UHGV virus genome: UHGV-0203597 | Length of the DNA stretch: 41,485 bases | From: a virus | Strand: one strand, 5' to 3' | Part shown: positions 692 to 25,206 of the stretch, in pieces | How positions within the stretch are numbered: the stretch's first letter is position 1 | Layout: every line of letters begins with the position of its first letter | Position numbers and translations under genes: made by a program | The notes under the pieces: model-generated | What the model was told of the DNA's origin: nothing | Database searches by the model: none | What the model saw: the letters and a program-made list of their open reading frames with translations, nothing else

Positions 692-1204
692 CTATGCAGG
701 CTTTTTGGATTTGTACGAATAATCCCACGGATAAACATTTCTACTAAGTGGAGCTGTATTCGTTCGTTCATGAAATAATTTTGTGAAATTCAATACGGAA
801 TCCATCCAAACTTTTGCGTTAGCTTTGGTGTGTGCGGGCGGGTCCCAATAAGCTAGTAAGGCTGCATCTCTTATTTCATTGACTGCATATATGAGATATG
901 CGTTACTGGTTGGTTTTGGCCTGTAATTTCCTTGTTCATCAATCAATCCATATGACCACTCATCCCAACACTGTTCAGTACATGAGTATGAATATGATGC
1001 ATATTCACCAATATTGACATGAACCTTTCTGAGATGGAAGCCTAATACTTCGTCTGGTCTTTCAAAAAGAGTATCTTTTCCCAGATCAGGATGATGACCA
1101 TGACGCCAGTGTTGTTTAAAAGCATCTTTTAGCGAAATCAGAAAGTCATCAGTTTTAAACTCACCAGTAGGTATAACCTTCCCGCTATACTCACTCAAAA
1201 ACAT
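692..1204 (-). CDS. YafO-family toxin-like protein (paralog 1)
   Basis: 170 aa; motifs HWRHGHHPDLGKDTLF, RKVHVNIG, YLIY, AALLAYWDPPAH recalled as matching E. coli YafO (RDGxLPDxFGRD, VAHIHL, LVYC, AWLLIAILKPEPH); 14-nt overlap with upstream gene. Confidence 0.5.
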   Translation of the reverse strand: MFLSEYSGKVIPTGEFKTDDFLISLKDAFKQHWRHGHHPDLGKDTLFERPDEVLGFHLRKVHVNIGEYASYSYSCTEQCWDEWSYGLIDEQGNYRPKPTSNAYLIYAVNEIRDAALLAYWDPPAHTKANAKVWMDSVLNFTKLFHERTNTAPLSRNVYPWDYSYKSKKPA

Positions 1205-1517
1205 CGAATTCCTCTTCCTTCATATGCGTTTCTAATGAGTTAAGCTGGCGGAAAGATATCTCTTTTGATTCTGCAGATGAGAGCTTTTTTATCCGCTTTA
1301 TATTCTTTGTGATAGGAATAGACATTGTATGCACATCAGCGGATGCTCTTGGCTTTGTGCTGATAAAAATATGGCGCAATGCCGCATTTTCACTATTGAA
1401 CGAGCCAATAGCTGATTTACGTGCTACAACCTTACCAGTAAAAATACGACTCTTGCTACGCTTTGCATGAGTTCCGCTTCTTACCGGACCTCTCATCACG
1501 AATCCAAGTTTTGTCAT
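1191..1517 (-). CDS. Small basic protein, putative cognate partner/antitoxin of YafO-like paralog 1 (no family recognised)
   Basis: 108 aa, Lys/Arg-rich with acidic C-terminus EEEFDVFE; GGAGA RBS; overlaps toxin-like gene. Confidence 0.4.
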   Translation of the reverse strand: MTKLGFVMRGPVRSGTHAKRSKSRIFTGKVVARKSAIGSFNSENAALRHIFISTKPRASADVHTMSIPITKNIKRIKKLSSAESKEISFRQLNSLETHMKEEEFDVFE

Positions 1518-1640: not shown

Positions 1641-2336
1641 TCAGAAGAACCCTGCCTTGTCGTTGATGTACTCCGCGTGGGTCTGGATATCACGCAGGCA
1701 TTTGCTCACACCGACGATGTAGCAGAACATGGTGGTCAGCTCCGCCGCCGCGCCCGATACGTCGTGCCCGTCTTCCTGTAACTGGTTCAGCAGATTCATC
1801 AGCAGTGAGTTCTCCGTCAGGCCGAGAACACCAGACGGCGAGTGAATCAAACTGCGGTAGCCGGGCTTCAGTGGGGCGCTGTAGGTTTTGTTCTCTATCT
1901 TCATTGCCTGCATCACTGCTGATGCTGTGGCGTTGGCTACCTGGTCGGCAACCATCTTTATGCGTTCTTCCTGCGGGAGCGAGTTTTTAATGTAACTTCC
2001 GGTGCGGCGGATCTGAGGAAGAACCTCACCTGTAACCCATTTACGAAAGCGGTAGGGGATAGTGCCTGGTGTCACTGCGTCGCGGCAGCGGAGGATCAGT
2101 GTGTAGAGGCCTGACTCGGAGATGATGATCGATTCTTGCTCACCGCCAGGGGTGTCGGTTGAAGCGACGCCCTTCTCATCATCATCAAGTTTTCGAACAG
2201 CATCTCGATGGTTTGCTATGCCTATAGCCCGACAAACATCTGAAGCGATAAACCATGGCTCACCATTTATGACGATTACTCGTATATCGGCTTGGGATTC
2301 GAAAGAAAAAATGGACGTGCTTTTTGTAGCTGTCAT
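1641..2336 (-). CDS. BRO-N domain antirepressor-like protein with Ant-type C-terminal domain
   Basis: 231 aa; N-terminal motif PWFIASDVCRAIGI typical of BRO-N; C-terminal ~70 aa paralogous to the small protein at 3805-4062. Confidence 0.75.
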   Translation of the reverse strand: MTATKSTSIFSFESQADIRVIVINGEPWFIASDVCRAIGIANHRDAVRKLDDDEKGVASTDTPGGEQESIIISESGLYTLILRCRDAVTPGTIPYRFRKWVTGEVLPQIRRTGSYIKNSLPQEERIKMVADQVANATASAVMQAMKIENKTYSAPLKPGYRSLIHSPSGVLGLTENSLLMNLLNQLQEDGHDVSGAAAELTTMFCYIVGVSKCLRDIQTHAEYINDKAGFF

Positions 2337-2605
2337 AGTGGTTACCTTTTAGTCTGGTTAATCACCACTACCGACGCCAATCGGTTGGTGGTGAACTGTG
2401 CAGGGTTGGCGTAACCGGCTAAAAGGACCCGGCGCACCTTTCGGTGCCCCCACACAGCCCACCATAATACGAATGTGGCCGTGCTATACGCATAAAAAAA
2501 CCGCTTGCGCGGTGAATGCGCCTTTTAGTAATCCGGAACGCCAATCCCGGCACTGGATTTTGCCAGTGCCCGATTACTATGGCACAAGAGGAGTGCAATG
2601 TAAAT

Positions 2606-2620
2606 TTACCGCAAAGGTAA
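2606..2620. promoter_or_regulatory. TTACC-N5-GGTAA operator-like palindrome
   Basis: ttaccgcaaaggtaa in the 420-bp divergent intergenic region between the BRO-N gene and 2758-3285. Confidence 0.45.
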
Positions 2621-2730
2621 TGATAAATGCATAACTCACGTCATTTCAACCCTATGTGGTTTGATTGATCCCATTTCAGAAAATACCTGCCTATTTTTTT
2701 GCCAGTGAGCGTATACTTTCGATAGAATGT

Positions 2731-2745
2731 TTACCCTAAAGGTAG
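2731..2745. promoter_or_regulatory. TTACC-N5-GGTAg operator-like site (one mismatch)
   Basis: ttaccctaaaggtag, 13 nt upstream of the ATG at 2758. Confidence 0.35.
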
Positions 2746-2757
2746 TTGGGGGTGCCC

Positions 2758-3285
2758 ATGAACACGAAGAGAGTTACAGCGATGAGGCATAGACGCTTTG
2801 CCTTGAAAAGGCCTGAAAAAGAAAAAGAGCAAGAGATGGTGATTGAAGCAGCCGCTTATGCTGCAGCTATGGCAACTGCTGATGCGATTAGAAATTATGA
2901 AGAAGAGGATAATAAAAATTCCTATCGCATTTACTTATATGAGAGCCGTCACAGTGTTACAGACCATGAAGCATGCCTAAAAAAACAAGGGGAAGTATTC
3001 CACTGCAACCTTGCTGAGTACATTAGGAATGAAATGGAAAGGAATTTGGCTTTATCTCATTTTGGATACAAGAGTCAGGAAAGTGGTTTCGCTGGCTTTA
3101 AGGATAAAATTAACGAAAGGTGGCAACGTTTATACAAGCCACTTCAAGTTGATGAGAAAACTCATCAACTTGTTATGCATGAGGTCCCAAAGATGTCCGT
3201 AGAGAAATCCCATGCAATCTCGCGCAGGATGTTTGCACGCACTGCTGAAGACATGGCTCAGGAGCTCTACGACGATGCCGAATAA
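2758..3285 (+). CDS. Hypothetical charged helical protein, putative partner of YafO-like paralog 2
   Basis: 176 aa from ATG 2758 (alternative 2746); acidic C-terminus ELYDDAE; stop overlaps start of downstream toxin-like gene; unrelated to the 108-aa partner. Confidence 0.4.
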   Translation: MNTKRVTAMRHRRFALKRPEKEKEQEMVIEAAAYAAAMATADAIRNYEEEDNKNSYRIYLYESRHSVTDHEACLKKQGEVFHCNLAEYIRNEMERNLALSHFGYKSQESGFAGFKDKINERWQRLYKPLQVDEKTHQLVMHEVPKMSVEKSHAISRRMFARTAEDMAQELYDDAE

Positions 3286-3781
3286 ATTCCAGGGGTTGGT
3301 TCACCCTGGAATTTTTGGGAAGGACCCTGAGCTAATACCTATCAAAAACGCGTTCATAGATCACTGGCGCTACGGTCATCATAAGGATTTCGGAAAGGAC
3401 ACTCTGTTTCGAGATCCACCGAAAGAGATGCTGGAATATCACATACGCCACGTTCACTTAAACATCGGAAACTATACTGACAAGTTTGGTGAGAGCGGTA
3501 CGGAACAATGCTGGAAAAACTGGGCGTCTGGGAAGAAAGACAAGACCACTAACAAGCATAAAAAGATCCCAACCAGTGACGTGTATGTGATTTATCTGGT
3601 CACATCTGAACGCCATGCCTTCCTTCTGGATTATTGGGATGAACCAGCGCATAAGACAGTAGAAATTGACGAGCAGAAGCAAAAATTAGTTGTCGAGTGT
3701 GACAGAATTTTGCGGCTGAAAAAGTTAGAATCCATGCCGCGCGATGCAAGTTTGTGGGACCCAGAATTTTACGACTGTTAA
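3275..3781 (+). CDS. YafO-family toxin-like protein (paralog 2)
   Basis: 168 aa from MPNKF; motifs HWRYGHHKDFGKDTLF, RHVHLNIG, YVIY, AFLLDYWDEPAH align with paralog 1. Confidence 0.5.
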   Translation: MPNKFQGLVHPGIFGKDPELIPIKNAFIDHWRYGHHKDFGKDTLFRDPPKEMLEYHIRHVHLNIGNYTDKFGESGTEQCWKNWASGKKDKTTNKHKKIPTSDVYVIYLVTSERHAFLLDYWDEPAHKTVEIDEQKQKLVVECDRILRLKKLESMPRDASLWDPEFYDC

Positions 3782-3782
3782 T

Positions 3783-3808
3783 GGCCGCTTTCGCGGCCTT
3801 TTCTTTAT
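3783..3808. terminator. Bidirectional terminator hairpin GGCCGC-TTTC-GCGGCC plus T-tract (second copy)
   Basis: Same 18-mer as 427-444; between convergent genes ending at 3781 and 3805. Confidence 0.6.
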
Positions 3809-4062
3809 GTGGTTTGTTTTCGTAATTGTTCGGCACAATAGTCGAGATGTGTTTGCAGATCCTGCATAGACATCTGTGAGCTGGTGACGTAGTTAATCAG
3901 TGCAGTCAGTTCGGCAAGTGGGCCATCGACATTAAATCCATCCTTATCGAGATCCCGGAGTAATTTCATCAAGTGCGATCCCTCCACCAGTGACCTGACG
4001 CCTCCCGGCGTGTGAATCCTTTCGGTAAATCCGTCTTCCAGTGGATAGTGATACTGCTGCAT
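3805..4062 (-). CDS. Small Ant C-terminal-domain-like protein; candidate SOS-inducible antirepressor
   Basis: 85 aa from ATG 4062 (GGAGAAG RBS); paralogous to the C-terminus of the BRO-N protein; LexA box about 20 nt upstream. Confidence 0.5.
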   Translation of the reverse strand: MQQYHYPLEDGFTERIHTPGGVRSLVEGSHLMKLLRDLDKDGFNVDGPLAELTALINYVTSSQMSMQDLQTHLDYCAEQLRKQTT

Positions 4063-4081: not shown

Positions 4082-4101
4082 AACTGTATATTTATACAGT
4101 A
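4082..4101. promoter_or_regulatory. LexA (SOS) box
   Basis: aaCTGTatatttatACAGta; minus-strand reading TACTGTATAAATATACAGTT matches consensus TACTGTATATATATACAGTA at 18/20. Confidence 0.6.
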
Positions 4102-4138: not shown

Positions 4139-4153
4139 TTACCTGAAAGGTAA
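4139..4153. promoter_or_regulatory. TTACC-N5-GGTAA operator-like palindrome
   Basis: ttacctgaaaggtaa, identical to the site at 25529; between the LexA-box gene (minus) and the tailspike (plus). Confidence 0.45.
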
Positions 4154-4257
4154 TATCTATTCGTATTTACAGCCTTTCTATCCATATGTGGTTTTCCAGG
4201 TAATAGAATAACCAGATATGCGGCGCAACGGGTGCTGCGACTATCTGGAGATTTAAC

Positions 4258-14608: not shown

Positions 14609-14623
14609 TTACCGTTGAGGTAA
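14609..14623. promoter_or_regulatory. TTACC-N5-GGTAA operator-like palindrome (left operator region)
   Basis: ttaccgttgaggtaa. Confidence 0.5.
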
Positions 14624-14670
14624 TAATTATGCGTATATGGTTTGATGTCAATAGATATGAGTTAAAAAAA

Positions 14671-14685
14671 TTACCCGTTAGGTAA
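14671..14685. promoter_or_regulatory. TTACC-N5-GGTAA operator-like palindrome (left operator region)
   Basis: ttacccgttaggtaa. Confidence 0.5.
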
Positions 14686-14704
14686 TCGAATAGGCAATAA
14701 AAAA

Positions 14705-14720
14705 GCCGCCATAAGGCGGC
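14705..14720 (-). terminator. Terminator hairpin downstream of the repressor gene
   Basis: gccgcc-ataa-ggcggc flanked by A/T tracts; T-tract follows on the minus strand. Confidence 0.6.
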
Positions 14721-14742
14721 TTACTTACTGAAAAATATGGTT

Positions 14743-15327
14743 TTATTGTTTGTTTTTTTCGTTCTGGTTGATGACAAATTCAATGTAACTTTCGATCTTT
14801 GCTTTCTCGGTTTCGGGTAACAATGCGTAGCGTGAGCGGTCATAGTTGATAGTCGCAGGGTCGTGCGGGTGAATCAGTAGTTCATATCCGTGACGCCCGA
14901 ATGCGGATGCAACATTCTCCAGGGTGGAAATGGAAACGCTGACCTCATTGTTTAACAGGCGGCTGATTGTCACCTGGGCGACGCCGGATGCGCGGTGAAG
15001 TTTTCCCTGAGTTGAAAGGTCGCGGCTTTCACTCATCCAGCGTTCCAGGTTGTGAGCTGCCAGCTGACCAATGTCGCTTGGGCCGACAGGCTGAAAACCT
15101 TCCTGAGAAAGCGAGCGATCGATATCAAGCCAGTTACGGGGTTTATTGGCGGCAGCTTCAATTTTTCGCGCAACCTGGTCGCCGATAACCTTCTTGCCAA
15201 GAGCCCAGCGGTTTACCAGATTTGCCTGAGTTCCAAGTTTTTCTGCCATCCGCGTCTGAACACCATTGAATTCACGGTCGATCAAGTCGTTGAGATTTTG
15301 CCTGCGGACGTCCTGGATACTTTTCAT
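14743..15327 (-). CDS. Prophage repressor, two HTH domains, no LexA-like autocleavage domain
   Basis: 194 aa; HTH-like segments near residues 25-45 and 105-130; no Ala-Gly/Ser-Lys protease module; flanked by operator palindromes on both sides. Confidence 0.6.
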   Translation of the reverse strand: MKSIQDVRRQNLNDLIDREFNGVQTRMAEKLGTQANLVNRWALGKKVIGDQVARKIEAAANKPRNWLDIDRSLSQEGFQPVGPSDIGQLAAHNLERWMSESRDLSTQGKLHRASGVAQVTISRLLNNEVSVSISTLENVASAFGRHGYELLIHPHDPATINYDRSRYALLPETEKAKIESYIEFVINQNEKNKQ

Positions 15328-15382
15328 TTTCTGGAAAATCGCCTCATATATGAATCAGTAGATGATTCAATTTAAAGCAATA

Positions 15383-15397
15383 TTACCCAACAGGTAA
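15383..15397. promoter_or_regulatory. TTACC-N5-GGTAA operator-like palindrome (right operator region)
   Basis: ttacccaacaggtaa between divergent repressor and cro-like genes. Confidence 0.5.
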
Positions 15398-15430
15398 ATG
15401 CACCCCATAGGTAACTATCCTTGATTTTTG

Positions 15431-15445
15431 TTACCTTATGGGTGA
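15431..15445. promoter_or_regulatory. TTACC-N5-GGTgA operator-like site (right operator region)
   Basis: ttaccttatgggtga, one mismatch. Confidence 0.4.
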
Positions 15446-15481
15446 ATATTTATTATCTGAAATAAATATCAGGCAATAGCT

Positions 15482-15712
15482 ATGAGCGATAACGGACATT
15501 TCGATTTCAAAAAGCACTGGCTTGCACTTACTCCGGATGAGCGTGAAGCCTTCGCACAGGAAGCCGGAACGACGAGTCACTATATCCAGACTCACTTAAC
15601 AGGTAAGCGCAAAATGCCAGGTAAGGTATTGATGAATGGGCTTTTTAAAGCATGTAAAACAAGACAATGGCTGCGCTCAAAAGCGGAACTGGCATACTTC
15701 TTCTACTCATGA
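15482..15712 (+). CDS. Cro/CII-position small HTH regulator
   Basis: 76 aa; divergent from repressor; HTH-like EAFAQEAGTTSHYIQTHLTGKRK. Confidence 0.5.
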   Translation: MSDNGHFDFKKHWLALTPDEREAFAQEAGTTSHYIQTHLTGKRKMPGKVLMNGLFKACKTRQWLRSKAELAYFFYS

Positions 15713-15734
15713 TATCTGGCAACAACCCTCTGTA

Positions 15735-15758
15735 GACCGCCATCCGGCGGTCTTTTCA
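15735..15758 (+). terminator. Terminator after cro-like gene
   Basis: gaccgcc-atcc-ggcggtc then tttt. Confidence 0.6.
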
Positions 15759-15767
15759 TATCTATTC

Positions 15768-15782
15768 GTACCTCAAAGGTAA
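15768..15782. promoter_or_regulatory. gTACC-N5-GGTAA operator-like site
   Basis: gtacctcaaaggtaa just after the cro terminator. Confidence 0.35.
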
Positions 15783-25129: not shown

Positions 25130-25206
25130 TGGCGTGGCATGCAGGATTCGAACCTGCGACCAACCGCTTAGAAGGCGGTTGCTCTGTCCAACTGAGCTAA
25201 TGCCAC
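25130..25206 (-). tRNA. tRNA-Arg (anticodon UCU), phage-encoded variant
   Basis: 77 nt GTGGCATTAGCTCAGTTGGACAGAGCAACCGCCTTCTAAGCGGTTGGTCGCAGGTTCGAATCCTGCATGCCACGCCA; full cloverleaf with 7-bp acceptor stem, GTTCGAATC T-loop, encoded CCA; D and T arms match recalled E. coli argU, acceptor and anticodon stems differ. Confidence 0.85.

Follow-up and report, generated by a model that had tools for sequence, protein, structure and literature searches.

What occupies the 421 bp (2337-2757) upstream of the antirepressor gene ant in the UHGV virus genome UHGV-0203597, and how might it control ant? The window analysed here is a 41,485-nucleotide stretch of DNA from that genome. The initial annotation had described a BRO-N antirepressor-like gene with a structured leader of 420 bp, carrying two operator palindromes and several inverted repeats, and had suggested a regulatory RNA or an attenuator. 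The gap holds five small ORFs, the longest of which has at most 78 aa, and a Pfam search of these five found no match. Within the gap lie IsrK and C4, small-RNA genes of catalogued families that form a P1-type antisense switch silencing the antirepressor. The explanation as a whole, in which the region is a P1-type "immunity I" module of an epsilon15/phiV10-like (Uetakevirus) E. coli prophage, is in our opinion highly probable.

IsrK and C4 upstream of ant

Table 1. Positions of the ant locus features and of related control elements in the window.
Feature	Position	Strand	Details
ant	1641..2336	minus	231-aa antirepressor; Bro-N residues 17-107; C-terminal domain about 150-226
b2 target	2345..2352	minus	CUAAAAGG; ant Shine-Dalgarno region, 8 nt before the AUG at 2336
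a2 target	2374..2380	minus	UUGGCGU; complements the C4 3′ linker; loop of a small predicted hairpin, 2370-2385
C4 RNA gene (Rfam RF01695)	2384..2469	minus	77.7 bits vs gathering score 45, E 1e-13
C4 segment a′	2406-2412		ACGCCAA; exposed, 3′ linker
C4 segment b′	2419-2426		CCUUUUAG; exposed, hairpin-2 loop
IsrK RNA gene (Rfam RF01394)	2494..2569	minus	72.3 bits vs gathering score 50, E 1e-13
IsrK intrinsic terminator	2494-2513	minus	ACCGC-GCAA-GCGGU + U7; also found by an independent terminator scan
IsrK linker, b1	2521-2528		CUAAAAGG
IsrK hairpin 2	2533-2550		a1 UUGGCGU in loop, 2538-2544
IsrK hairpin 1	2550-2569
Predicted sigma-70 promoter, isrK-C4-ant	2576..2604	minus	-35 TTTACA 2604-2599, 17-nt spacer, TG-extended -10 CATAGT 2581-2576
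Operator palindrome	2606-2620		TTACCGCAAAGGTAA; TTACC-N5-GGTAA, perfect; abuts -35 hexamer; presumed Rep site
Second promoter-like site	2620..2649	minus	-35 TTGAAA, -10 TATCAT; start would fall inside the operator; status uncertain
Divergent promoter	2699-2728	plus	-35 TTGCCA, -10 TAGAAT; serves the two-gene cassette starting at 2758
Second palindrome	2731-2745		TTACCCTAAAGGTAG; one mismatch; operator copy of the divergent cassette
Small antirepressor, 88 aa	4071..3805	minus	PDB 5D50 chain E, E 1e-47
LexA box	4084-4099		CTGTATATTTATACAG; at the small antirepressor promoter
Rep	15327..14743	minus	PDB 5D50 chain A, E 4e-42; helix-turn-helix domains only, no peptidase domain

Both RNA assignments come from full-length matches above the Rfam gathering scores (Table 1), extending over model positions 1-77 of 77 for IsrK, with its two 5′ hairpins and terminator included, and over positions 1-87 of 87 for C4. 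A regulatory RNA is thus present before ant, as had been suggested, and so is an attenuator, in that IsrK ends in an intrinsic terminator within the leader. The c4-a1b1 motif, which overlaps IsrK, reaches 39 bits and stays under its gathering score of 46.7. In the window, IsrK lies directly upstream of a C4-type RNA and an antirepressor gene; it is separated from C4 by 24 nt, and in 15 of 19 sampled C4 loci it lies approximately 25 nt upstream of C4. Of the two inverted repeats quoted in the initial annotation, the first (2430-2449) corresponds to C4 hairpin 1. The second, gcgc-ggtgaat-gcgc (2507-2521), does exist as a plus-strand pairing, but the real element at this place is the overlapping minus-strand terminator of IsrK.

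The C4 fold is a long closing stem around two hairpins, and alignment to the annotated P1 c4 RNA predicts a mature molecule at about 2463..2387 (77 nt). The covariation alignment comprises 68 diverse homologues and leaves out two probable chance matches of the search pattern, L016, which has no C4 match in the Rfam scan, and L075, in which the conserved 5′ AUGG is missing by eye. In this alignment, 93.8% of cells are paired, compared with 35-50% in slid controls, and 15 of the 27 pairs show double changes; helix 3 is uninformative because it was fixed by the search pattern. Double-change cells number 280, as against 83 in shuffles, and none of 500 shuffles is as high. For the 233 nt of the leader predicted to be transcribed, the fold is also far more stable than in shuffles (z = -5.27, 0/200). 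It should be noted that the plus strand of the leader folds well too (z = -4.82); with z close to -5 for either strand, folding energy is no guide to the strand of the RNA.

Another line of evidence is the complementarity between C4 and its presumed targets. The exposed segment a′ (ACGCCAA) pairs perfectly over 7 bp with UUGGCGU, and b′ (CCUUUUAG) pairs perfectly over 8 bp with CUAAAAGG; IsrK and the ant UTR contain one copy each of both targets. A search of the entire 41-kb window for the 8-mer CUAAAAGG on the minus strand found it only at the ant Shine-Dalgarno region and in IsrK. In related loci, the site equivalent to b2 ends 7-12 nt before an ATG in 80 of 90 cases. Placement of a2 in a hairpin loop is not a general feature: a crude local fold puts it there in 30 of 103 loci only.

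The comparison across loci uses 127 matches, or 112 non-redundant loci, a set whose counts include one or two chance loci (L075 and, at least in the complementarity test, L016). Complementarity of at least 7 nt to the C4 of the same locus is found for b2 in 84%, for a2 in 92%, for a1 in 89% and for b1 in 60% of these loci; between different loci it is found in 4-10% of pairs (4% for a2). The offsets of the sites are fixed; the a2 match lies about 22 nt downstream of C4. The loci present about 88 combinations of a′ and b′, and in phage Tyrion and Stx phage P27 the switches are coordinated at all three places, i.e., in the C4 segments and in both target sets. The a′/b′ combination, or "address", differs even between the window phage and Tyrion, which belong to the same genus. 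Whole-molecule duplex energies are only modestly more favorable than those of shuffles (7/500 for C4-UTR and 5/500 for C4-IsrK), with C4 unrealistically unfolded in the calculation, and carry less weight than the cross-locus complementarity test. In the minimum-free-energy fold of the leader, IsrK and C4 pair in a long helix. The predicted stability of this cis helix, -102.6 kcal/mol, exceeds the sum of about -88 kcal/mol for the parts folded separately; therefore, the availability of free C4 may depend on the kinetics of termination or processing.

The predicted ant transcript and its product

The elements follow one another on the ant strand in the order presumed Rep operator, predicted sigma-70 promoter, IsrK, C4 and a 47-nt ant 5′ UTR. 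From the position of the promoter, transcription is predicted to start near 2569, where the IsrK match begins; this placement is based on a consensus promoter scan in which sites are no commoner than in shuffles (4 vs 4.6). The predicted leader RNA is accordingly only about 233 nt long (2569-2337): the 420-bp region exists as a gap, but as a leader it had been overstated by about 190 bp. The remainder, 2621-2757, consists of a junction and the divergent promoter-operator of the neighboring cassette. Both palindromes reported in the initial annotation are present, but the copy at 2731-2745 belongs to the divergent plus-strand promoter and not to the ant leader. Neither phiV10 nor SPC32H has this cassette (2627-3804). 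The -35 hexamer of the second promoter-like site on the minus strand is not conserved in phiV10, because the phiV10 homology ends at about 2626.

The operator motif is present in 15 copies in the window, compared with 0.64 expected, and none of 100 shuffles reaches 15; the copies cluster around the repressor/cro-like region, 14609-15782. Tyrion, whose Rep is 78% identical, has the same motif in the same place and keeps the layout of operator, -35 and -10 at 78% overall identity. The same palindrome stands beside the ant promoter of SPC32H. The copy next to the isrK-C4-ant promoter is presumed to be a binding site of the phage repressor Rep, and a palindrome that abuts the -35 hexamer, recurs genome-wide and is kept in Tyrion is consistent with control of this promoter by the main repressor.

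The description of ant as a BRO-N antirepressor-like gene agrees with matches to Pfam Bro-N (E 2.3e-21) and to PHROG 130, "anti-repressor Ant" (E 3.7e-63). Residues 148-229 match PHROG 450, and residues 150-226 match chain E of PDB 5D50, "Anti-repressor protein" (E 1e-13). Thus, as judged by sequence comparison, the C-terminal domain is homologous to the LexA-controlled small antirepressor of the SPC32H type, the structure of which was solved together with its repressor (5D50). In related C4 loci, 58 of 106 downstream ORFs fall in a single antirepressor-like cluster. The ORF4 gene of phage vB_EcoP_ZX5 has 98% DNA identity to ant, and overexpression of ZX5 ORF4 reduced the lysogen titre about 1000-fold (PMC9782041). 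The ant start lies 47 nt past C4, with no ORF between the two, i.e., no icd-like ORF.

Known switches and alternative readings

The locus is a clear yet ordinary instance of a known system, the P1/P7 immI (c4-icd-ant) or Gifsy-1 IsrK-STnc1160-AnrP design, here without icd. With P1/P7 immI it shares the one-strand order of operator, promoter(s), a1, b1, c4, a2, b2 and antirepressor given in the annotation of the P1 record, a presumed operator of the main repressor at the promoter (Op51/Oc4 in P1), a b2 site on the ribosome-binding site, and sites of 7 and 8 nt. P1, however, has icd before ant1/2, whereas in the window, without icd, b2 covers the ribosome-binding site of ant itself. Further differences are that Ant of the window is a Bro-N + SPC32H-type protein and not P1 Ant1/Ant2; that the operator is TTACC-N5-GGTAA, presumably for an SPC32H-type Rep, whereas that of P1 is an asymmetric 17-mer bound by C1; and that the upstream element is a full IsrK of 72 bits, compared with only 35 bits in P1, an Rfam scan of which returned C4, c4-a1b1 and a sub-threshold IsrK-like match. 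Translational coupling through an icd-like ORF that lies between c4 and ant is a peculiarity of P1/P7, and the wider C4 family is not defined by it. In P1, the C4 precursor is processed by RNase P to an RNA of about 77 nt, which represses Ant synthesis in trans.

The Rep/Ant lytic switch of the Salmonella phage SPC32H, reportedly the work of Kim and Ryu in 2013 and Kim et al. in 2016, has its counterpart in the Rep, small Ant and LexA box of the window and in the match of the Ant C-terminal domain to 5D50. Unlike the window, SPC32H has only the small LexA-controlled Ant and no Bro-N ant, IsrK or C4; the window adds a second, RNA-gated antirepressor. Phage P4 resembles the locus in that a processed small RNA, CI, is flanked by upstream and downstream complementary sites (seqA/seqC) on the same transcript. 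P4 CI acts by transcription termination of replication genes and is not known to mask the ribosome-binding site of an antirepressor. The authors who studied IsrK cite P4 CI RNA as a structural homologue (PMC4825925).

The isrK-orf45(STnc1160)-anrP locus of Gifsy-1 in Salmonella likewise combines IsrK and its terminator with a C4-type region and an antirepressor, and the predicted long-range helix that joins the C4 linker to the central part of IsrK in the window corresponds to the mutationally supported "structure A" (Hershko-Shalev et al. 2016, PMC4825925). In Gifsy-1, the short form of IsrK activates translation by way of coupling to orf45, and toxicity of AntQ follows from AnrP; short and read-through IsrK isoforms, trans activation by the short form and Hfq binding are described for Gifsy-1 only (PMC4825925). 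In contrast, the putative ORF of the window that is equivalent to orf45 has 35 aa and stops 21 nt short of ant, and both phage type and repressor are different. Only one sampled locus, L007, has isrJ after C4, the Gifsy-1 order, with isrK, C4 and isrJ all at gathering score. In the APSE phages of Hamiltonella, an isrK-family and a c4-family RNA are reported to lie beside a gene with a BRO N-terminal domain, and a′/b′ to match a region upstream of this gene; host and phage lineage are different, and an SPC32H-type Rep/Ant context is not described there (PMC7313666).

The initial annotation drew its analogy from P22 immI, with which the locus has in common an antirepressor gene near a tailspike gene, controlled by operators and a small RNA. 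In P22, arc and mnt lie next to ant and encode local repressors, and sar is a convergent cis-antisense RNA from the opposite strand. A switch of this kind, with Arc/Mnt-like ribbon-helix-helix repressors on the palindromes and a sar-like plus-strand RNA across the ant start, could appeal to the palindromic operators flanking the region, to the stable fold of the plus strand and to a terminator-like site on that strand at 2507-2521. Nevertheless, a promoter scan of the plus strand over 2300-2690 found no promoter for a convergent sar, the family search of the leader ORFs found no local Arc or Mnt nor any other Pfam family, and both Rfam matches are on the minus strand, that of ant. Moreover, copies of the palindrome are spread genome-wide, with a cluster at the Rep/cro-like region, as would suit a site of the main repressor rather than of a local Arc or Mnt. 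The analogy is given up, and we regard a P22-type arrangement as extremely improbable.

It is very unlikely that the gap encodes functional small proteins, as related records would have it. Small CDS are annotated over the homologous stretch in ZX5, Stx phage P27 and phiV10, and the labels used in related records include "ash family protein", "hypothetical protein", an SF0880-like feature and "putative protein". An AUG at the 5′ end of C4 (2465 in the window) is conserved in 101 of 112 loci and leaves room for a short translated ORF. The ORFs that begin at this AUG, however, range from 5 to 64 aa (median 35) and are no different in length from control frames (median 27), the small ORFs of the gap lack a Pfam match, and the substitutions are compensatory in RNA helices. 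The annotated 5′ end of mature P1 c4 lies inside the AUG, and the start codon would thus be lost on processing. In Gifsy-1, a tagged product of orf45, an ORF overlapping the C4-equivalent region, has been detected, and orf45 has a part in coupling (PMC4825925); a review points out, however, that its nucleotide sequence is conserved and its amino-acid sequence is not (PMC12197685). A purely cis-acting attenuator, in which the IsrK terminator and alternative folds would set read-through into ant and C4 would be a structural element with no RNA acting in trans, is also unlikely. Such a device would agree with the terminator inside the leader, with the pairing of the IsrK and C4 regions in a long-range cis helix as the fold of lowest energy, and with the cis alternative structures that control translation in Gifsy-1 (PMC4825925). 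On the other hand, changes in the C4 loops are matched at the downstream sites a2 and b2 as well as at those upstream, and b2 lies on the Shine-Dalgarno sequence, which is the layout of an intermolecular repressor acting in trans. P1 c4 is a processed, trans-acting RNA according to the P1 record and one further source (PMC8546580), and STnc1160 and IsrK of Gifsy-1 are stable separate species (PMC4825925; PMC7067206).

A proposed switch and its wider meaning

For the P1-type immI module, the following sequence of events is proposed. A single promoter beside the Rep operator would transcribe isrK, C4 and ant in this order; most transcripts would end at the IsrK terminator, and those that read through would carry C4 and ant. 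C4 would probably be cut out as an RNA of about 77 nt, as in P1, and its segments would pair with UUGGCGU (a2) and CUAAAAGG (b2, the ribosome-binding site of ant), blocking translation of Ant from the phage's own transcripts as well as from those of an incoming phage with the same specificity. IsrK, with its second copy of both sites (a1, b1), could pair with C4 in cis or in trans and should therefore be a decoy or activator that sets a threshold for Ant synthesis, as for Gifsy-1 IsrK. We infer the direction and strength of each RNA effect: the P1 model, in which C4 represses, and the Gifsy-1 model, in which IsrK activates via a translated upstream ORF, differ in detail, and either may apply. 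The translational-coupling and Rho-polarity step of P1 is not transferable as such, because the window has no icd-like ORF.

Once made, Ant should bind and disassemble Rep through its C-terminal domain, and Rep would also repress the isrK-C4-ant promoter. Therefore, if Rep is lost, for example following synthesis of the neighboring small antirepressor under LexA control, transcription of isrK-C4-ant would increase and induction would be reinforced. That the isrK-C4-ant switch is a P1-type immI module controlling Ant in the way described here is, in our view, very likely.

A broader proposal is more speculative, and we put it forward only as a possibility. This lineage might possess two antirepressors built on the same Rep-binding domain, an ancestral 88-aa protein under LexA control and a Bro-N fusion placed behind a Rep operator and IsrK/C4. 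The latter could then be a positive-feedback latch, derepressed on loss of Rep and with a threshold set by RNA, by which the prophage is committed to induction, and the variable a′/b′ address could form a second layer of heteroimmunity between otherwise co-immune phages. A limited literature search found neither this feedback loop nor an address code on the scale of about 88 combinations.

The finding mainly corrects annotation, since the two RNA genes are covered in several phage records by small genes labelled "hypothetical" or "ash family". Part of the leader is matched in 941 of 5426 complete E. coli genomes; in the 10 best-matching E. coli records no annotated feature lies under the match, and in the next two only the flanking BRO gene is annotated. 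The E. coli strains Nord58 and B19695 match 2337-2757 with 100% identity. The finding also supplies a missing link for coliphages of the phiV10 and ZX5 types: in the ZX5 paper, the Bro-N protein was taken as "the" antirepressor, and both its RNA control and the adjacent LexA-controlled antirepressor of the SPC32H type went unnoticed (PMC9782041). The two-antirepressor feedback, if true, would account for the input of SOS-independent signals and of superinfection immunity into a switch so far described in terms of LexA, Ant and Rep only.

The isrK and C4 RNAs ahead of ant

The gap upstream of ant, the minus-strand Bro-N antirepressor gene, spans 421 bp (2337-2757), and its ORFs are all short and lack Pfam matches. 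The regulatory RNA proposed for it in the initial annotation is borne out by isrK and C4, both of which exceed the Rfam gathering scores on the ant strand; the c4-a1b1 motif overlaps IsrK just under threshold (39 vs 46.7). The two operator palindromes described in that annotation are real. Of the two GC-rich repeats quoted there, the first (2430-2449) is a true hairpin, and the second (2507-2521) overlaps a real terminator, but the pairing quoted for it is that of the plus strand. The leader is shorter than the 420 bp claimed: homology to phiV10 ends at about 2626, positions 2621-2757 are not leader, and part of them forms a divergent promoter with operator. Thus, the minus-strand order, 5' to 3', is operator, predicted promoter, IsrK (hairpin 1, hairpin 2, linker and intrinsic terminator), a 24-nt spacer, C4, a 47-nt UTR and the ant AUG at 2336. 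Transcription from the predicted promoter would begin near 2569, where the IsrK match also begins.

Features of the antirepressor region and related elements of the window
Feature	Position	Strand	Details
Operator palindrome TTACCGCAAAGGTAA	2606-2620		perfect; abuts -35 hexamer of isrK promoter
Operator palindrome TTACCCTAAAGGTAG	2731-2745
Divergent predicted promoter and operator	2699-2745	plus	for plus-strand ORF at 2758
Predicted consensus promoter	2604-2576	minus	-35 TTTACA, 17-nt spacer, TG-extended -10 CATAGT
isrK (RF01394)	2569..2494	minus	Rfam 72.3 bits, gathering score 50
IsrK intrinsic terminator		minus	ACCGC-GCAA-GCGGU + U7; overlapped by plus-strand pairing 2507-2521
C4 antisense RNA (RF01695)	2469..2384	minus	Rfam 77.7 bits, gathering score 45
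a1 UUGGCGU	2538-2544	minus	loop of IsrK hairpin 2
b1 CUAAAAGG	2521-2528	minus	IsrK linker
b' CCUUUUAG	2419-2426	minus	loop of C4 hairpin 2
a' ACGCCAA	2406-2412	minus	3' linker of C4
a2 UUGGCGU	2374-2380	minus
b2 CUAAAAGG	2345-2352	minus	Shine-Dalgarno region, 8 nt before ant AUG
Small antirepressor ORF, 88 aa	4071..3805	minus	5D50 chain E, nearly end to end, E 1e-47
LexA box CTGTATATTTATACAG	4084-4099		perfect; ahead of 88-aa ORF
Rep-type palindrome	4139-4153		ahead of 88-aa ORF
Repressor Rep	15327..14743	minus	5D50 chain A, E 4e-42
tRNA-Arg gene (anticodon TCT)	25130-25206	minus	within prophage
TTACC-N5-GGTAA, 15-nt sites	1560, 2606, 2731, 4139, 9057, 14609, 14671, 15383, 15431, 15768, 17708, 17770, 22330, 22348, 25529

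The z score for folding of the 233-nt segment 2569-2337 is -5.27 on the ant strand and nearly as low (-4.82) on the opposite strand; therefore, folding energy alone has no power to assign the strand. Covariation of the C4 fold is strong. Among 68 homologues, 93.8% of cells are paired (35-50% in slid controls), and two-sided changes occur in 280 cells vs 83 in shuffles, none of 500 being as high. Of 19 loci sampled, 15 have IsrK about 25 nt 5' of C4.

Prophages of E. coli Nord58 and B19695 have a leader 100% identical to this one; over 1606-2626, the window shares 95-98% identity with TL-2011b, vB_EcoP_ZX5 and phiV10. In related GenBank records this stretch is annotated as small proteins or left blank. 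An IsrK-C4-Ant module also occurs in Stx phage P27 (L003, 1800-2700) and, at 60-80% identity, in 127 other phage records; in many Shiga-toxin phages it lies in the nin region between ninE and roi, its RNA genes being annotated as small "putative proteins".

Antisense sites and their coordinated change

The exposed C4 segments a' and b', named like their targets after the annotated P1 record, each have two perfect complements on the same strand, one in IsrK (a1, b1) and one in the ant UTR (a2, b2). Throughout the 41-kb window, the minus strand contains CUAAAAGG at b1 and b2 and nowhere else; b2 overlaps the ant ribosome-binding site. When viral contigs were scanned for the invariant core of C4, with the loops left free, the outcome was 112 non-redundant loci, including one or two chance pattern matches (L016, L075), with about 88 distinct a'/b' combinations. 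Complementarity of at least 7 nt is found for b'/b2 in 84% of comparisons within a locus and in 6% across loci; the corresponding values are 92% and 4% for a'/a2, 89% and 8% for a'/a1, and 60% and 10% for b'/b1. The site offsets are fixed in this set (a2 ~+22, b2 ~+50-57, a1 ~-95, b1 ~-79), and b2 ends 7-12 nt ahead of an ATG in 80 of 90 loci.

In Tyrion, a phage of the same genus, both specificities are switched at all three places: a' AGACCAA pairs with UUGGUCU at two sites, and b' CCUUUGUAG pairs with CUACAGAGG (one G-U pair) and CUACAAAGG. Leader DNA and Rep protein are each 78% identical to those of the window, and the layout of operator, -35 and -10 is identical. A third b specificity, GAAAAAGG, is found in P27. 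Two related viral loci, L055 (9709-11209) and L029 (4574-5421), carry two or three IsrK-C4-ORF units in tandem; those of L055 are spaced by 656 bp, with an ORF of about 115 aa and a different a'/b' combination in each. A single element thus holds a series of C4 switches that differ in address.

An AUG at the 5' edge of C4 (window 2463-2465) is kept in 101 of the 112 loci, and such conservation could mean that it starts a short ORF like Gifsy-1 orf45. The lengths of the ORFs that it opens look random, however, and in the P1 record the annotated 5' end of mature c4 falls within this AUG. For the latter reason, its conservation may reflect RNA processing, perhaps the surroundings of an RNase P cut site, rather than use as a start codon.

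Antirepressors, Rep and neighboring cassettes

The 231-aa product of ant (2336..1641) comprises Bro-N at residues 17-107 (Pfam E 2.3e-21) and a C-terminal domain, residues 150-226, resembling PDB 5D50 chain E, "Anti-repressor protein" (E 1e-13); it matches PHROG 130, "anti-repressor Ant", with E 3.7e-63. When the near-identical ORF4 of ZX5 was overexpressed, lysogens fell from 1e9 to 1e6 (PMC9782041), which is consistent with antirepressor activity. In phiV10 (L001, 3012-3691), ant, at 1641-2336 in the window, is split into two annotated CDS of 90 and 585 nt. Through a short deletion relative to the window, at about 1779-1795, phiV10 has lost the reading frame for the Rep-binding-type domain at the C-terminus, and its Bro-N Ant may therefore be inactive.

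PDB 5D50 is the Rep-Ant complex of the epsilon15-like Salmonella phage SPC32H, whose LexA-controlled Ant breaks up Rep tetramers (PMC9638917; GenBank annotation). The 88-aa ORF of the window is nearly identical in sequence to this antirepressor and shares 42% identity (E 9e-20) with the C-terminal domain of the Bro-N Ant; in related E. coli phage entries it is labelled a hypothetical protein. Kim and Ryu reportedly described in 2013 that SPC32H Ant, under LexA, dismantles Rep tetramers. The window Rep, homologous to SPC32H Rep (PDB 5D50/5D4Z), has two helix-turn-helix regions and no peptidase (S24) domain, and palindromes lie in the divergent intergenic region next to it (15383-15445). SPC32H carries the small ant only, flanked by the tailspike gene and a gene for a membrane protein, with a TTACC-N5-GGTAA palindrome in its promoter as in the window. 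The window phage has therefore added a second antirepressor, in which Bro-N is joined to an Ant domain and supplied with its own predicted Rep operator and an IsrK/C4 switch.

With at most one mismatch, TTACC-N5-GGTAA occurs 15 times in the window vs 0.64 expected. The copies cluster round the repressor/cro-like region and also stand ahead of several accessory cassettes; Tyrion likewise has 15. Repressor operators thus seem to be scattered over the genome, reminiscent of P1 C1.

Two two-gene cassettes, 692-1517 (minus) and 2758-3781 (plus), each have a Rep palindrome copy ahead. The second genes of the two are paralogous to each other (46% identity, E 3e-38) and weakly resemble YafO toxin, under the Pfam cutoff; no common family was detected for the first genes. 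Neither phiV10 nor SPC32H has segment 2627-3804, in which the second cassette lies. Direct repeats around TATGTGGTTTG are found close to both ends of this insert (2650-2666, 3803-3819) and also ahead of the tailspike gene (4182-4194); they may be junctions at which cassettes are exchanged by recombination. An identical GC-rich hairpin, GGCCGCTTTCGCGGCC, annotated as a terminator in phiV10, closes a gene block at ~427-442 and another at 3783-3798; they resemble bidirectional terminators that have been reused where modules meet.

A probable switch of the P1 immI type

The window layout is colinear with P1 immI, annotated in NC_005856 as C1 operator, promoters, a1, b1, c4 (77 nt), a2, b2, icd and ant. 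In Rfam searches, P1 itself matches C4 and c4-a1b1; its IsrK match stays below threshold and includes a hairpin with a U-run after it. As described in PMC8546580 and PMC7313666, P1 c4 is cut from the operon transcript, pairs with a2 and b2, and stops translation of the first downstream gene and hence Ant synthesis. Unlike P1, the window has no icd, and the ant ribosome-binding site would be the direct target. Citron and Schuster (1990, 1992) and Biere et al. (1992) reportedly established c4 processing, a2/b2 pairing and the block of Ant synthesis. Every testable defining feature of C4, IsrK and P1-type immI is present in the window, except the P1-specific icd; control of the promoter by the main repressor is predicted from the palindrome. 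The P22 analogy of the initial annotation is not upheld: the promoter scan gave no plus-strand promoter in 2300-2690, and the leader ORFs match no Pfam family.

In Gifsy-1, most isrK transcripts end at the IsrK terminator, the read-through RNA is translationally silent when the middle of IsrK pairs with the STnc1160 region, and short IsrK in trans turns translation on (PMC4825925). The STnc1160 region is now recognizable as C4, and the minimum-free-energy fold of the window leader is a long-range helix of the same kind, IsrK(a1, b1):C4(b', a').

APSE phages were earlier reported to carry isrK and c4 together with a BRO-N gene (PMC7313666); our literature search found no paper linking isrK/c4 RNAs to Uetakevirus phages. 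Mildly novel, in our opinion, are the joining of Bro-N to an SPC32H-type Ant domain, with RNA control of the fusion, and the wide range of a'/b' specificities.

The sequence analysis shows the RNA family membership, the structure, the co-varying complementary sites, the overlap with the ribosome-binding site and the enrichment of the operator, whereas transcription start, processing, Rep binding, and the sign and strength of each effect are inferred. In the resulting scheme, Rep would limit transcription of isrK-C4-ant, the IsrK terminator would limit read-through, C4 would mask the ant ribosome-binding site, and IsrK would titrate C4. As Rep seems to be a repressor of PisrK, its loss would raise isrK-C4-ant transcription, and the switch could possibly act as a feed-forward latch.
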